From: Escherichia coli
Lineage (GTDB): Bacteria > Pseudomonadota > Gammaproteobacteria > Enterobacterales > Enterobacteriaceae
NCBI RefSeq assembly: GCF_030013595.1
Contig: NZ_CP122768.1
Length of the DNA stretch: 64,000 bases
Direction: 5' to 3' (one strand)
Shown: one piece after another, positions 46,350-63,603 of the stretch
How positions within the stretch are numbered: the first letter of the stretch is position 1
How the letters are laid out: each line of letters begins with the position of its first letter
Notes under the pieces: model-generated
The model's database searches: none
Told to the model about the DNA's origin: nothing
The model's input: the letters and a program-made list of their open reading frames with translations, nothing else
Made by a program: the position numbers and the translations under genes

Positions 46350-46425
<76 letters not shown>

Positions 46426-46479
46426 GTTTAAAAGGCATCGGCGTCAAGCGGATGTCTGGCTGAAAGGCCTGAAGAATTT

Positions 46480-46553
46480 GGCGCGTTAACAAAGCGGTTA
46501 TGTAGCGGATTGCAAATCCGTCTAGTCCGGTTCGACTCCGGAACGCGCCTCCA
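46480..46553 (+). tRNA. cysT: tRNA-Cys (anticodon GCA)
   Basis: ggcgcgttaacaaagcggttatgtagcggattGCAaatccgtctagtccggttcgactccggaacgcgcctcca. Confidence 0.95.
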
Positions 46554-46565
46554 CTTTCTTCCCGA

Positions 46566-46652
46566 GCCCGGATGGTGGAATCGGTAGACACAAGGGATTT
46601 AAAATCCCTCGGCGTTCGCGCTGTGCGGGTTCAAGTCCCGCTCCGGGTACCA
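46566..46652 (+). tRNA. leuZ: tRNA-Leu (anticodon TAA), long variable arm
   Basis: gcccggatggtggaatcggtagacacaagggattTAAaatccctcggcgttcgcgctgtgcgggttcaagtcccgctccgggtacca. Confidence 0.95.
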
Positions 46653-46782: not shown

Positions 46783-47799
46783 TCATTTTCTCTGGCCACC
46801 AACTACGGGCACTACTTTAACTTTTCGGTCATATGCTGCTGTCTGTCGTGGGTTCTTATGCCCGGAAATTGCTTGCTTCTCTTCCAGGCTGCCTTCCAGA
46901 TCAGAGATACCTTTTGCTTTCAGATCATGAAATGTGAAGTCTATTTGCAGATGAGGATATTTTTCCTGTGCTGCCGCTTTGACATCACGCCAACGAGAGT
47001 TAAAACCATCACGGGTGTACTTGCCTCCGGTAGTTTGATGAATCACAAACAGGCTACTGATTCCCGGTTTTAATGGCAGAGAACGAGCCAGAGCTATCGC
47101 TTTCTGCAGACGAGGCGACCAGGCTTTGATTTGCTTAACGCCGGTTTTTCCCTGACGAATGTAGATCCCGGAATCGAACAGCTGGTCTTTCTGTAATGAA
47201 AGTACATCACTCTGTCTGGCCACACATAAGTAGGCAATCTCCATTGCCACGCGAACAACATCAGGAGACACTTCATAAACGGCCTGATATTCTTCATCCG
47301 TAATATAACGTTCGCGTGCTGTCTCTTTAAACTGCTTAACTCCCTGACAAGGATTCCTCTGGACATAACCTCGTTCATAACCCCAACGGAATACCCTGGA
47401 CATAAAGCTTTTTTCCCTATTTGCCTGAGTTCGGCTTGATAAACCGCGTTGATCCATATAGCGCCGAATATGTTCAGGTTTGATTTTATCCGGGTCGATC
47501 TTCCCGAAGACAGGCAGAACTTTTCCGGAATATTTTGTGTAGTCTTTCCTGGTTTCGACTGCCAAATCCATAAAATCAGGGGAGGTCATGAATTGTTCCG
47601 CGAGCGCCTGAAAAGTATTTCTTTCTTTTTCGTCACCGACCGCTTTTTCATATGCCAGCCATACGGCTGATCGTGGCGCATCCAATGCGCACAGGCGTAT
47701 CGCTTTGTTATCTTTATTCCTGAATTCGTAGGCCGCTTTGCCCTGGTAAACACGAGGCGGCATCCAGTTATCTGCTGGGTTCTTTCTCTTTCCGGCCAT
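46783..47799 (-). CDS. int: phage tyrosine integrase
   Basis: ORF 46783..47826; likely start ATG 47799 with GGAG 9 nt upstream; C-terminal catalytic region. Confidence 0.8.
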   Translation of the reverse strand: MAGKRKNPADNWMPPRVYQGKAAYEFRNKDNKAIRLCALDAPRSAVWLAYEKAVGDEKERNTFQALAEQFMTSPDFMDLAVETRKDYTKYSGKVLPVFGKIDPDKIKPEHIRRYMDQRGLSSRTQANREKSFMSRVFRWGYERGYVQRNPCQGVKQFKETARERYITDEEYQAVYEVSPDVVRVAMEIAYLCVARQSDVLSLQKDQLFDSGIYIRQGKTGVKQIKAWSPRLQKAIALARSLPLKPGISSLFVIHQTTGGKYTRDGFNSRWRDVKAAAQEKYPHLQIDFTFHDLKAKGISDLEGSLEEKQAISGHKNPRQTAAYDRKVKVVPVVGGQRK

Positions 47800-48031
47800 T
47801 AAATATTGCTCCAAAATCAGGTTCATCTTCTTTTCGCGTCGTCACCTCCTGTAAATTGCGAAATTTTATTGGGTTCAAGAAATGGCCCCAGGTTGTTTTT
47901 GGGTGCCCGTCAGCCCTTTCCATGAAGAAAATTCCAGCCCGGCGAAGAGCCTCACATTGCTTTGATTTAAGTGGGCTTCCCGTCAGCTCGACCATTTCTT
48001 CTCTGGTGATTATGTCGTGATCGCTTTTCAT
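47768..48031 (-). CDS. small phage protein, DUF4224-like (excisionase-associated)
   Basis: 87-aa ORF overlapping int start, typical xis-like position. Confidence 0.5.
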   Translation of the reverse strand: MKSDHDIITREEMVELTGSPLKSKQCEALRRAGIFFMERADGHPKTTWGHFLNPIKFRNLQEVTTRKEDEPDFGAIFNGRKEKEPSR

Positions 48032-57949: not shown

Positions 57950-58207
57950 ATGCAGACTCAATTAAAGGTTAAAGGCGGTTATAGTCATTTTTTCTTCGCC
58001 AATATTGAAGTCTCACAAAGAGAGTCAAATGGCGGTTTGGTTGTCGTTAGGGATGTTAATATACCTATTACAACAACAACTCTCTCTCTGTTAGAGAATT
58101 ACGCTGTAGGGCAGGTGTTGACGTTAGAACAAAAGAATGGCGATTTTTTTGATGTGTATTACGTTGGAACTGATGGGAATAACTTTCAGTTTTCAACGCA
58201 CTGCTAA
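57950..58207 (+). CDS. hypothetical phage protein; its 3' end lies in left copy of a ~200-bp direct repeat
   Basis: 85-aa ORF with GGAG RBS. Confidence 0.45.
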   Translation: MQTQLKVKGGYSHFFFANIEVSQRESNGGLVVVRDVNIPITTTTLSLLENYAVGQVLTLEQKNGDFFDVYYVGTDGNNFQFSTHC

Positions 58208-58310
58208 TTTATCAAGGCCCTGTGAGCAGGGCCTTCGAAAGCCTACTAAAGTCTGTTTCATAGAGAGAGTTATTTGCGATTAAAAAGGTATTTGGTCACG
58301 ACCAGCACGA
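58114..58310. repeat. left copy of diverged ~200-bp direct repeat
   Basis: Aligns to 63183..63374 at roughly 85% identity with short indels. Confidence 0.7.
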
Positions 58311-58419
58311 TAGAGAATACATCTTTCAAAGTACCGCCCATATAAAACAGTTACATATGCACTTGATGACTAAGCTGGCACCAGGTTAACACCATGCGCC
58401 AGCTTGAAGGAGACTTCAG

Positions 58420-58593
58420 TTATTGGTTTCTGAGGAAAGCGATTCTTGAAAGGGTCATTTGCGTCTGGCAGTCGACCATTTTCTTGACTTCAGCATCTGT
58501 TCCTTTCTTGACTTCAGCATCTGTTCCCTGCATTGAAACTTTACCGCACATAGCATCCTTAGTTTTGATCCACTGGCGCTGAGAAGGCAGCAA
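58420..58593 (-). pseudogene. 3' fragment of lipoprotein gene split by IS629
   Basis: Joining across the IS with one copy of the ACT target duplication restores one frame to TAA at 58420..58422. Confidence 0.65.
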
Positions 58594-58649
58594 CTTGAAC
58601 CGCCCCGGAAATCCTGGAGACTAAACTCCCTGAGAAAGAGGTAAACAGG

Positions 58650-58976
58650 ATGACTAAAAATACTCGTTTTTCCCCCGAAGTCCGTCAGCGGGCGATTCGT
58701 ATGGTTCTGGAAAGTCAGGATGAATATGACTCACAGTGGGCGGCAATTTGTTCCATTGCCCCAAAGATTGGCTGTACGCCGGAGACTCTGCGTGTCTGGG
58801 TTCGCCAGCATGAGCGGGATACCGGGGGCGGTGATGGTGGGCTCACCAGCGCTGAACGTCAGCGTCTGAAAGAGCTGGAACGTGAAAATCGTGAACTGCG
58901 CCGCAGTAACGATATCCTTCGCCAGGCTTCCGCTTATTTTGCGAAGGCGGAGTTCGACCGCCTCTGGAAAAAATGA
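58650..58976 (+). CDS. IS3-family transposase OrfA
   Basis: 108-aa [25 protein letters not shown] recognised as IS629/IS1203 OrfA. Confidence 0.9.
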
Positions 58977-59863
58977 TGCCACTGCTGGATAAGCTGCGTG
59001 AGCAGTACGGGGTCGGACCGGTATGTAGCGAACTGCATATTGCCCCGTCAACGTATTACCATTGTCAGCAACAGCGACATCATCCGGATAAACGCAGTGC
59101 CCGTGCGCAGCACGATGACTGGCTGAAGAAAGAGATACAGCGCGTATACGATGAAAATCACCAGGTATACGGTGTGCGTAAAGTCTGGCGTCAGTTGTTA
59201 CGGGAAGGTATCAGAGTGGCCAGATGCACTGTGGCACGTCTCATGGCAGTTATGGGACTTGCCGGTGTTCTCCGGGGTAAAAAGGTCCGCACTACCGTCA
59301 GCCGGAAAGCCGTTGCCGCAGGCGACCGCGTAAACCGTCAGTTCGTGGCAGAACGACCTGACCAGCTGTGGGTGGCTGATTTTACTTACGTCAGCACATG
59401 GCAGGGCTTCGTCTATGTGGCGTTTATCATTGATGTGTTTGCCGGATACATCGTGGGGTGGCGGGTCTCATCGTCTATGGAAACGACATTCGTGCTGGAT
59501 GCGCTGGAGCAGGCGTTGTGGGCCCGTCGTCCGTCTGGCACCATCCATCACAGCGATAAAGGCTCTCAGTATGTGTCACTGGCCTATACGGAGCGACTAA
59601 AAGAAGCCGGATTACTGGCATCAACAGGGAGTACAGGCGACTCGTATGACAACGCGATGGCTGAGAGCATCAATGGTCTTTACAAAGCGGAGGTAATACA
59701 CCGTAAGAGCTGGAAAAAACGTGCAGAAGTGGAACTGGCCACACTAACGTGGGTGGACTGGTATAACAATCGACGATTGCTGGGAAGGCTGGGCCATACT
59801 CCTCCGGCAGAAGCAGAAAAAGCTTATTATGCTTCCATCGGAAACGATGATCTGGCAGCCTGA
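58973..59863 (+). CDS. IS3-family transposase OrfB (DDE integrase-like)
   Basis: 296-aa ORF overlapping orfA in -1 frame. Confidence 0.9.
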
Positions 59864-59905
59864 GTTCACAGATAAAACACTCTCCAGGAAACCCGGGGCG
59901 GTTCA

Positions 59906-60680
59906 ACTCTTTTTTCTTCGCCGGGGTTAACTTGCTCCAGACGGTATTCAAATCAGAGTCAGCATTTGCAAATGCCATTCGGGACTGATCAAGGCTTTCA
60001 GATTTTTGCGGCTGAAGTTGTGCCTGCCTCTCTTTTTGCTTCTCCGCCTCATACCTGGCCTGTTCCTGTGCCCTGAGTTGCACCTGTTGTTCCGCTTCAA
60101 TTTGACTCTGTTGGGCATCCTTAGCCTGCTGGATTTTCTGCTGCTCAACGATCGGGTTGATAATGGAAAGCGATGTCAGTAAAGCGGCGCCCACTGATAT
60201 CGGATTATCAGAAGAGGTTTTTACAAAAACGTTTTTCTGATCGTCGGTCGCCTGCACGGTGTAGGTGATACGCCTTGAAAAGGCGTTTGCGTTGTTCTCC
60301 AAAAACAGATTTTCCATTTGCTTATCGAGATTACGATTAAAATTCTTTCTGTAAGCATCTGAAAGCTGGACGTACTCGTTCGCAGGTAGAGTCATCGTCA
60401 CGGTCCCTTCACAAGTTTTCATTGTGCTGCCCGTGTCACTTGATGTTGTGGAGATTTCAGAGACGGCTAGTTTGATCTTGTCCAGTGTGCTTCGTTTGGT
60501 CTGATTAGTGACATCAGGGTATTTATCGACCTGTTCAGAGAGTCCTTCATAAGCAGATTTTTTTAATAAATCCATGAGAGCTGATTGGGTCATTTCCGAA
60601 GAACAACCGATCTCATCTTTTTTGTTATCACAGCCTGTAAGGGCAATGGCGAGTAAGAGTACTGAGTATTTTAATCTCAT
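59906..60680 (-). pseudogene. 5' fragment of lipoprotein gene split by IS629
   Basis: ORF 59670..60680 has lipobox LTGC; after codon 258 it reads into the IS629 right end. Confidence 0.7.
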
Positions 60681-61436
60681 GAATTCCCTTTAGAGTAAGG
60701 ATTGGTTTTTAAGACGCGGTCTGTAATCAGTTCCGAGAGCTACAGTAAACAACGCTGAGCACTGAACGCATCACAGGCAAGGTAAAAGGTGATATCGGCA
60801 AAGGCTGTGAAACCTTTAATTCAACAGATGGGAACGGTATGCACAGGATCCTGTAACGACGCTCCCAAAACTGGAAACCTGTAAGGCATGTTTTCGCTGC
60901 TGAACTTAATATACGAACCTGCACTATCATGAACATATTTTATATCGTTATACCCCGAGTGATTGTGCCCGGCAATGGATAGTGTCCTGGAGGAATTATT
61001 TCTAATGTAAAAGGAAGATATTTAATTTCGATGTGGGATTATTACCTGTCTATAAGAACAATGACTTTATCTGGCAGTAAGCAGACATCTATTAGCTTAC
61101 TGAAGGGGGGCTGTGATTTGACCATTAACGGCATGAGATATATTGTCTATTGGTGATTGTTCTGAGGCCGATATCACGTTAACGACCAAGTAAAATAACA
61201 TGAAAAATTATTTATTAATGATTGCCAGCATTAAATGTAGTGATACCTCATTAGCAGGGTGCTCCGCAATGACTGCGATGAACTAAAAAATCAGTCATAA
61301 CCATGAAAAAAACAAGTGTATCAGCGAAATTAAATCTGGTGAAAGCATTTAATTACTTGTTAATGACGCAATAAAAACATACTATGGAAATGTAACAGCT
61401 AATCTACAGTTCTTGTCAATAGGGGCGCACAAGAAA

Positions 61437-62027
61437 ATGTTAAATGAATTTAAGGAAAAGCTACTATCCGACGATATCCGCGATGTCTACCAACGATACC
61501 TTTTAGGACATGACATCTGGTATTTTCGGGAACAAAAAAAATCAATAACCTTTGCTAAAGATTATGATGAGTTTAAGCTATATATGTCTAAGAAGCTTGA
61601 AATTCATGTAAATAATATTGCAATTGTTGGAAGTGCTAAGATGGGATTCAGCTTGAGCCCTGATAAAAATTATCGAACATTTAACGATGAGTCAGATATA
61701 GACTTGGTTTTAGTATCCGACAGAATTTATAAATCTTCCTGGATGGCATTTATTGAATTACAATCAAAGAATTATTTGCCTGTATATGCTCCTGTAGCTA
61801 AAAATATTTTCAAAGGATTCGTGTCATTGAAGGAGTTAGATATTAGAGTCGATTTTTTTAATAAATGGTCCCGTAACGTTGAACCATTAAAAAAAGACAT
61901 TCAAACTATTTTTGGAATACCTAACGACATCAACTACAGAATTTATGACTCTTGGGAGTCCGTTGAACGCTATCACATAGCTGGGTTGAATAGTCTAAAA
62001 GATAAGTTACAAGGACAATTGATATGA
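61437..62027 (+). CDS. small Pol-beta-superfamily nucleotidyltransferase-like protein
   Basis: ORF 61413..62027 opens on TTG, first ATG 61437; IVGSAKMGFS...ESDIDLVLV fits the GS...DxD pattern; low GC; stop overlaps next start (ATGA). Confidence 0.65.
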   Translation: MLNEFKEKLLSDDIRDVYQRYLLGHDIWYFREQKKSITFAKDYDEFKLYMSKKLEIHVNNIAIVGSAKMGFSLSPDKNYRTFNDESDIDLVLVSDRIYKSSWMAFIELQSKNYLPVYAPVAKNIFKGFVSLKELDIRVDFFNKWSRNVEPLKKDIQTIFGIPNDINYRIYDSWESVERYHIAGLNSLKDKLQGQLI

Positions 62028-63082
62028 GAGCTATTGATCTAATTAAAGTTGAATCGAAAGACATTAAATGGTTGACGGATAATTTGAAATCAGGTGTTAT
62101 TACAGTTGATAATTCATATCAGAGAAAATATATCTGGCAGCAAAAAGACCAAGTGGCCTTAATTGAGACAATATTAATTGGCTACCCAATCCCTGAGATT
62201 TACCTTTGGGCAAATAATACTGATCCTGACACTGGAGATACTAAATATTCAATTGTAGATGGACAGCAAAGGCTAACCACAATCCAGCGATATTTAAATG
62301 ATGAGTTTAAGTTAAGCAAAGCAGCTATAGATGATAAAGAAGCCGACTATAGTGGGAAAATTTTTTCAGAATTGTCGGCAGATAACAAACGTGATTTTTG
62401 GCGATACCAATTCTCATCCAGATTTATTAATGAATCATTGAGATATGATGAGATTGCAAAGTTATTTTTACGTCTAAATAGAACAAATACTACGTTAAAT
62501 CCTCAAGAACTTCGTAATGCTGAATTTAATGGCGAGTTTTTAAGATTAGCCGAAGAAATTGCACAAAATGAATTTTGGGATAATTATAAGATATTTACTC
62601 AGTCAGATATCCGTCGGATGCAAGACATTCAATTCATCAGCACATTATTGATTTTCTTACGAATGGGTATTGAGCAGGATAATACACAAAAATCAATTAA
62701 TCGAGTGTATGATCAATACAATGAGAATTACCCTGAGGCGACTGAGGACAGAATTATCTTTAACGAAGTGTTAAGGATCATATCTCAAATTATCAACAAT
62801 AAACAAGTATTAGAATCAGTTGTAAAGAAAAAAGGCCATTTGTATTTTATATTTGTGCTGGCATACTATTATTTACAGCTTAGTAAATCTAAGCTTGTTG
62901 ATATGAATGTTATTAGTTCAAAGCTCGAGGATTTTTTTAATATTTATGAGTTAAATGAACAAGATAACCCCCATCCACTGGTTGAGGAATATAGATTCCT
63001 CAGCCAAGAGGGTTCAAAGAAGAGTCATAACAGACAGCGTAGATTTGATATTTTGAAAGAATTTTGCTCTTTACATGATTAA
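62024..63082 (+). CDS. DUF262 (ParB-like, GmrSD N-terminal type) protein; no recognisable nuclease domain
   Basis: 352-aa ORF with YQRKYIW and IVDGQQRLTT motifs; helical C-terminal half without HNH/DUF1524 motifs. Confidence 0.75.
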   Translation: MRAIDLIKVESKDIKWLTDNLKSGVITVDNSYQRKYIWQQKDQVALIETILIGYPIPEIYLWANNTDPDTGDTKYSIVDGQQRLTTIQRYLNDEFKLSKAAIDDKEADYSGKIFSELSADNKRDFWRYQFSSRFINESLRYDEIAKLFLRLNRTNTTLNPQELRNAEFNGEFLRLAEEIAQNEFWDNYKIFTQSDIRRMQDIQFISTLLIFLRMGIEQDNTQKSINRVYDQYNENYPEATEDRIIFNEVLRIISQIINNKQVLESVVKKKGHLYFIFVLAYYYLQLSKSKLVDMNVISSKLEDFFNIYELNEQDNPHPLVEEYRFLSQEGSKKSHNRQRRFDILKEFCSLHD

Positions 63083-63182
63083 ATGACGAAAGTGGGTTGT
63101 TTATAAGAATTGAATAAACAACCCATCATTTTAATGTACTCTGAATCCTCTCATTCTTAGTGAAATATTGTTTTTAGAACAC

Positions 63183-63374
63183 GTATTGACGTTAGAACAA
63201 AAAATAGATTTTTTTGTGATGTATTACGTTGGAGTTGATGGGATAATTATATGTTTTCAATACATTGTTAATTTATCAAGACCCTGCGACTAAGGTGTTC
63301 GAAAATCGACTAAAGTCTGTTTCATAGAGAGAGTTACTTGCGTTTAAAAAGGTATTTGGTCACGACCAACACGA
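63183..63374. repeat. right copy of diverged ~200-bp direct repeat (decayed copy of 3' end of 57950..58207 gene)
   Basis: Aligns to 58114..58310; reading frame broken by stops and indels. Confidence 0.7.
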
Positions 63375-63603
63375 GGCCGAATACCTCAGTTTAAGTACCG
63401 CTCATGTACAACAGTAACGTTTGCTGATAGTGTCGCATTATCTTGCAGAGGACGCAGGTTAAATAGAACAAGCATATGTACCTGGTTTTTGTAATATTGG
63501 GTATAACATATGCTTTATAGGAGCGCGCTCAATGACCAACCGAGAAAGAATCTCCTGACAGATACAGTTATTTTCACCCTCTCCATAACATAAGGGAGTT
63601 TTT

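Follow-up and report, generated by a model that had tools for sequence, protein, structure and literature searches.

A rare in-frame 24-bp tandem duplication in a prophage LprI-family lipoprotein gene of Escherichia coli that was split by an IS1203-type element

In the window analysed here, 64,000 nucleotides of an Escherichia coli contig (NZ_CP122768.1), a 24-bp unit, TTTCTTGACTTCAGCATCTGTTCC, stands twice head-to-tail at 58480-58527, near the 3' end of a 315-codon lipoprotein gene of the LprI/DUF1311 (PF07007) family on the minus strand of a lambdoid prophage. We read this array as a recent in-frame 24-bp duplication, probably of single origin and near-neutral, in a gene later split by an IS1203-type element, and put the probability of this reading at about 0.85. 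It is proposed that a replication or repair error duplicated the 24 bp in one lineage of this prophage allele, and that the duplication would then have been inherited along with the prophage; the IS1203-type element later entered at codon 258/259 and left the repeat in a promoterless 3' remnant.

Tandem Repeats Finder returned a single array at 58480-58527, with a period of 24, 2.0 copies, 100% matches and 0 indels, and a repeat search gave two 24-nt copies, both at 100%, at the same positions. The preliminary description had placed a perfect 24-bp tandem duplication at 58481-58528, with a t/c difference at its last position; the duplication itself stands, the coordinates were rotated by one base, and the apparent difference arose because the register was shifted by one base from the perfect one. 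In the correct register the array stops at exactly 2.0 copies, position 58479 being T against the unit's last base C (58503), and position 58528 at the other edge being C against the unit's first base T (58504). The two copies, in plus-strand order, are as follows.

58480..58503, minus strand: 24-bp copy 1, encoding the second GTDAEVKK, residues 289-296 of the reconstructed 315-aa protein (repeat finders, translation)
58504..58527, minus strand: 24-bp copy 2, encoding the first GTDAEVKK, residues 281-288 (repeat finders; alignment with the one-copy E24377A allele leaves a clean 24-nt gap)

The two are indistinguishable, and either may be the newer. The minus-strand unit is codon-aligned (GGA ACA GAT GCT GAA GTC AAG AAA, giving GTDAEVKK), and translation confirmed the in-frame doubling of this octapeptide on the minus strand that had been described beforehand; the minus-strand ORF at 58420-58593 contains ...MQGTDAEVKKGTDAEVKKMVDCQ..., and the overlapping plus-strand ORF at 58394-58582 has 62 aa only. 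A 23-mer of the repeat occurs 2 times in the window and found 0 matches, with up to 3 mismatches allowed, in 100 dinucleotide-preserving shuffles, which excludes a chance origin.

The array had been assigned to a lipoprotein 3' fragment, and this assignment holds: 58420-58595 is the 3' end of an LprI-family gene whose 5' part lies at 59906-60680, past a 1310-bp insertion sequence. The parts of the interrupted locus are listed below.

58420..58595, minus strand: 3' fragment of the lipoprotein gene, codons 258/259-315, with the stop codon at 58420-58422 (reconstruction, PF07007, identity to the intact gene)
59906..60680, minus strand: 5' fragment of the lipoprotein gene, with signal peptide and lipobox (LTGC, Cys17), N-terminal alpha/beta domain, Q-rich long helix and first LprI helix (ORF list, reconstruction, AlphaFold)
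58596..59905, plus strand: IS3-family element of IS1203 (IS629) type, 1310 bp (inverted repeats, IS3 transposase, identity to named copies)
58650-58976 and 58973-59863: orfA and orfB, overlapping, within the IS (ORF list)
58593..58595, no strand: left copy of the target-site duplication ACT (flank of the IS end; ACT occurs once in the empty-site loci L003-L005)
59906..59908, no strand: right copy of the target-site duplication ACT (flank of the IS end)

As found, the 5' fragment continues into the IS and forms a 336-aa ORF (59670-60680). With the IS and one ACT removed, 58420-58595 and 59909-60680 join into an intact frame of 948 nt and 315 codons, and 768 nt of the reconstruction are 100% identical to an uninterrupted gene on NZ_CM149870.1 (two complete pig-derived E. 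coli genomes). The intact gene is annotated as 'lysozyme inhibitor LprI family protein', and RefSeq WP_112024906.1 is the reconstructed protein; the two-copy protein is thus not new but already in RefSeq. Its signal peptide and lipobox, MRLKYSVLLLAIALTG-C17 (…LLLAIALTG-C17), were read from the sequence, and C17 is invariant among the aligned orthologues, which identifies a bacterial lipoprotein. PF07007 matched residues 230-312 (profile positions 15-106 of 106) with 34.9 bits in the two-copy form against 33.5 in the one-copy form (cut-off 22), so the insert does not lower the score, and no family matched in a search of the lipoprotein against NCBIfam profiles. The pattern QRxW...C...G...C...R, conserved in the orthologue alignment, is present, and C274 and C300 (C292 in one-copy proteins), which flank the inter-helix loop, are invariant in the 27 aligned sequences. 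By profile, fold and cysteine pattern the host protein is a member of LprI/DUF1311, and by family name a putative lysozyme inhibitor. It shares the profile match, the helical fold and the cysteine pattern with this family, of which PP0307 of Pseudomonas putida has been solved (3GI7), but is a lipoprotein of 307/315 aa whose LprI domain is preceded by an additional N-terminal alpha/beta domain and a long Q-rich helix; in the two-copy allele, moreover, the conserved cysteines are separated by 25 residues instead of 17. The Q-rich long helix (window ~59990-60150, codons ~180-230) differs much in length between genera and is the source of almost all length differences in the family, whose full-length proteins have 293-333 aa.

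The insertion sequence has terminal inverted repeats of 26 nt, imperfect and 88% complementary, at 58595-58620 and 59881-59906. Its OrfB scored 315.9 bits against the NCBIfam IS3 transposase profile NF033516 (cut-off 160), and across all 1310 nt the element matches, at 99.9% identity, copies that bear the annotation 'IS3-like element IS1203 family transposase', several of which come from porcine E. coli. In its length of 1310 bp, inverted repeats, overlapping orfA and orfB, 3-bp duplication and 99.9% identity it agrees with IS1203/IS629 of the IS3 family, and compared with insertional disruption by IS1203/IS629 in E. coli, there is nothing unusual in the window's copy. Relatives with an empty site are the loci L001 and L003-L005; an insertion at this site was absent from the complete E. 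coli genomes that carry the two-copy junction, and exact look-up did not find the 336-aa read-through ORF. Strain HCP5S3_I2, whose prophage is otherwise 99.9% identical to the window's, has a different IS3-family insertion there (L001, 9663-10891), at a distance of ~3.3 kb from the LprI gene; the window does not have it at the corresponding 63178-63184, thus these two prophages gained IS elements independently.

The LprI gene is transcribed opposite to its neighbours and lies between replication genes (YdaS/YdaT, a DnaB-type helicase) and a DUF262/GmrSD_N gene with antiterminator Q, in a prophage that follows a tRNA-Gly/Cys/Leu cluster at 46350-46652. The lipoprotein gene had no match among deposited phage genomes, so the prophage label comes from the neighbouring genes only. 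The cluster consists of tRNA-Gly(GCC), tRNA-Cys(GCA) and tRNA-Leu(TAA) and is directly followed by a 347-aa minus-strand ORF (46783-47826); this ORF and the tRNA cluster are probably the integrase and attachment site of the prophage, and the window upstream of ~46 kb is ordinary chromosome. A direct repeat of ~185-240 nt, 80% identical and with its copies 5064 nt apart (58176-58360 and 63240-63424), encloses the LprI gene, a 204-aa ORF (61413-62027) and the DUF262/GmrSD_N gene (62024-63082), and may mark an accessory cassette that is swapped in the prophage. The 204-aa ORF overlaps the start of the gene for the 352-aa DUF262/GmrSD_N-domain protein (61413-63082 together), and the two are a possible anti-phage defence pair; in E24377A and in the locus L027, HNH and GIY-YIG (LEM-3-like) genes stand in place of this pair.

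Comparison with homologues indicates that one copy is the ancestral and two copies the rare derived state. The copy number in homologues had been set beforehand as the check on the duplication, and what was found is one copy nearly everywhere rather than two copies throughout. A 131-nt query around the repeat returned one-copy alleles as two joined pieces spanning 107 nt, so the count of matches covered to at least 80% was unusable for copy number and was replaced by a junction query of 54 nt, in which each 28-mer crosses the copy junction and one-copy alleles cannot seed a match. The 131 nt were present at ≥99% identity in 441 of 5426 complete E. coli genomes, and all 60 matches listed span 107 nt (131 minus 24), that is, one copy. 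The two-copy junction was found in 2 of the 441, HCP5S3_I2 and LCP30S3_I5, near-identical pig isolates from one site in which the gene is uninterrupted; the other 439 have one copy. The junction was also absent from the 25 other records, beyond H1 and H2, that are ≥99% identical to the reconstructed gene. Scans with the exact 24-nt unit gave one copy with the same flanks in 18 of 18 metagenome loci and in the 1 locus found among species representatives (Escherichia whittamii).

At the protein level, every one of 113 homologue-cluster representatives that retains its C-terminus has one G[TSN][DE]xxxxx octapeptide, these representatives coming from E. coli, Citrobacter, Enterobacter, Yersinia, Pseudescherichia, Pantoea, Erwinia, Proteus, Morganella and other genera. 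In an alignment of 27 sequences (at least 8 genera) the 8-residue insert is present in the window's allele (P0114) only, and the cysteine spacing is C-x17-C in the other 26 sequences against C-x25-C in the two-copy allele, with the loop glycine invariant. In the DNA alignment with E24377A the 3' region is near-identical apart from a clean gap of 24 nt, and the one substitution lies just beyond the coding part; across the 131 nt around the repeat this indel is the sole difference between one-copy alleles and the window's, which bears out the in-frame length variant that had been described. No 3-copy protein was found by exact look-up, nor three or more copies among the 19 scan loci and the 441 genomes, and hence nothing points to a copy number that is still changing; the survey covered 24 of 44 index blocks and 40 of 304 cluster members. 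At the 3' end of the gene, in the LprI core (window 58440-58570), alleles whose remaining gene sequence diverges by 2-3% have 100% identical DNA (60 matches listed), which suggests strong constraint or recombination there.

The 315-aa two-copy protein recurs unchanged on at least 24 further contigs (24-25), listed in 44 index blocks, and lies in the same prophage neighbourhood in every context shown. In two of these relatives (L004 and L005) the sequence flanking the IS position matches the window's at 100% (8176 nt on one side, 4097 or 862 nt on the other), and both have two copies and no IS; the duplication thus preceded the IS insertion. The nearest one-copy allele found, P0126 (L027), belongs to a related prophage and is set apart from the window's allele by the 24-nt indel and by 14 substitutions, none of which lies beyond nt 635 of the gene. 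An exact one-copy counterpart of the window's allele was absent from the protein collection by exact look-up, so the immediate ancestor is unseen and the single origin is a matter of parsimony. The simplest reading of this distribution would be that the duplication arose once and then spread vertically or with the prophage.

Slippage is the usual explanation for short tandem duplications, and the suggestion of the preliminary description that the repeat is a slippage-type variant remains plausible on this ground, while microhomology at the duplication junction is 0 nt and three or more copies were not found. The mark of a slipped-strand duplication, a short direct repeat at the two ends of the segment that carries the array beyond 2.0 copies, is missing here. 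Single-strand DNA folding of the one-copy region gave z = 0.09 and 0.01 on the two strands, that is, no unusual hairpin potential; a hairpin as the cause of the duplication end points is ruled out by these values near 0 on both strands. We infer the mechanism only in general terms, as duplication by replication or repair with slippage plausible, since microhomology is lacking at the junction and unusual hairpin potential in the one-copy sequence. Like other short in-frame tandem duplications, the array consists of perfect head-to-tail copies with a length that is a multiple of three, is codon-aligned and is polymorphic between alleles, but it differs from replication-slippage or microhomology-mediated ones in having no flanking microhomology. 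In another E. coli allele (P0002; L025, 1501-2448) there is an independent perfect 24-bp in-frame duplication in the Q-rich helix (AEQQVQLR x2) with a 3-nt GCG microhomology, at a site corresponding to ~60070-60095 of the window, where the window's allele has one copy.

The effect on the protein was modelled with AlphaFold from orthologue alignments, with a mean pLDDT of 84.2 for the one-copy and 82.8 for the two-copy form. The modelled elements around the repeat are as follows.

One-copy model: second LprI helix 253-274; loop 275-282 (8 residues); third helix 283-305; no low-confidence stretch in the loop
Two-copy model: second LprI helix 253-274; loop 275-290 (16 residues); third helix 291-313; pLDDT below 50 at 280-285

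The octapeptide doubling would thus lengthen the loop joining LprI helices 2 and 3 from 8 to 16 residues, and the extra octapeptide is predicted to extend a loop between helices tied by the conserved cysteine pair, with the domain kept. The C-terminal helical domain of the one-copy model was superposed by Foldseek on the PDB chain 3gi7_A with a probability of 1.00, a target TM of 0.64 and an rmsd of 3.5 A over 90 columns, with a weak E-value of 0.3 due to the use of the whole 307-aa model as the query; when the C-terminal domain was compared with the PDB by sequence, only chance matches came up (E 0.24). Since the helices are predicted to be kept, the two-copy variant is probably tolerated and near-neutral. 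On the other hand, the region that received the insert, between invariant cysteines, is the best conserved of the whole protein, and the insert could be deleterious rather than neutral. In the window itself the effect on the loop is moot, because the IS cuts off the promoter, the signal peptide, the N-terminal domain and the first LprI helix; the repeat lies in a dead, promoterless 3' remnant, and the duplication has no present function there.

Several other explanations of the repeat were weighed. The bare appearance of a direct repeat, and nothing else, would suggest a sequencing or assembly artefact or a non-coding plus-strand element such as paired protein-binding sites, an idea that can practically be dismissed: the same 48 nt of two-copy sequence are present in independent assemblies (L001, L003, L004 and L005), which rules out an assembly artefact, and the repeat is codon-aligned in a conserved coding region of which homologues have one copy. 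Only slightly less remote is the view that the two-copy state is the original one, from which the widespread one-copy alleles arose by deletion. Perfect tandem repeats are easily reduced in this way, and the LprI profile fits the longer loop slightly better, as the two scores given above show, but every other E. coli allele and all other genera examined have one copy with an invariant C-x17-C, the two-copy state is confined to one allele, and its copies are identical at all 24 positions, third codon positions included.

Slippage or RecA-independent deletion can act on two perfect tandem copies, and it could be asked whether the array is a hypervariable, VNTR-like contingency repeat whose slipped-strand expansion and contraction tunes or switches the lipoprotein. 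Besides this capacity to slip or delete, the second, independent 24-bp in-frame duplication in the same gene (P0002) speaks for such a repeat; we nevertheless regard a contingency function as very unlikely. In place of the several copy-number states of a VNTR or contingency locus there is one copy, or two in a single allele, the latter limited to one exact protein in one prophage context; a 3-copy allele was found neither by look-up nor in the scan loci and genomes, and a unit that is a multiple of 3 cannot switch the frame. Nor do we give much credence to an adaptive loop-length variant, in which the longer loop would alter the target of the LprI-type domain, a lysozyme or peptidoglycan-hydrolase effector, and be selected in the carrier lineage. 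[quoted passage not shown] Against this, the allele is seldom found (in 2 of the 441 complete genomes), the window's gene is inactivated by the IS, and in the model the added residues form a disordered loop. Equally improbable, in our estimate, is the more specific form of this idea, that the octapeptide doubling was selected because the doubled inter-helix loop between the conserved cysteines would give an LprI-type inhibitor or immunity domain another specificity and change which lysozyme or peptidoglycan hydrolase the lipoprotein neutralises; the gene may be prone to 8-codon duplications of this kind, as P0002 has a second, independent one.

There is nothing in the recent, probably single and near-neutral duplication that would surprise a specialist, and apart from the survival of the allele in intact form on a few dozen contigs, nothing speaks for an adaptive loop. 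The repeat is genuine but ordinary: an in-frame duplication specific to one allele, in an accessory prophage gene already lost to an IS here. The two-copy allele together with the IS1203 insertion site marks a narrow prophage lineage, and as a natural loop-insertion variant the allele is usable to gauge how far the inter-helix loop of LprI/DUF1311 proteins tolerates insertion.
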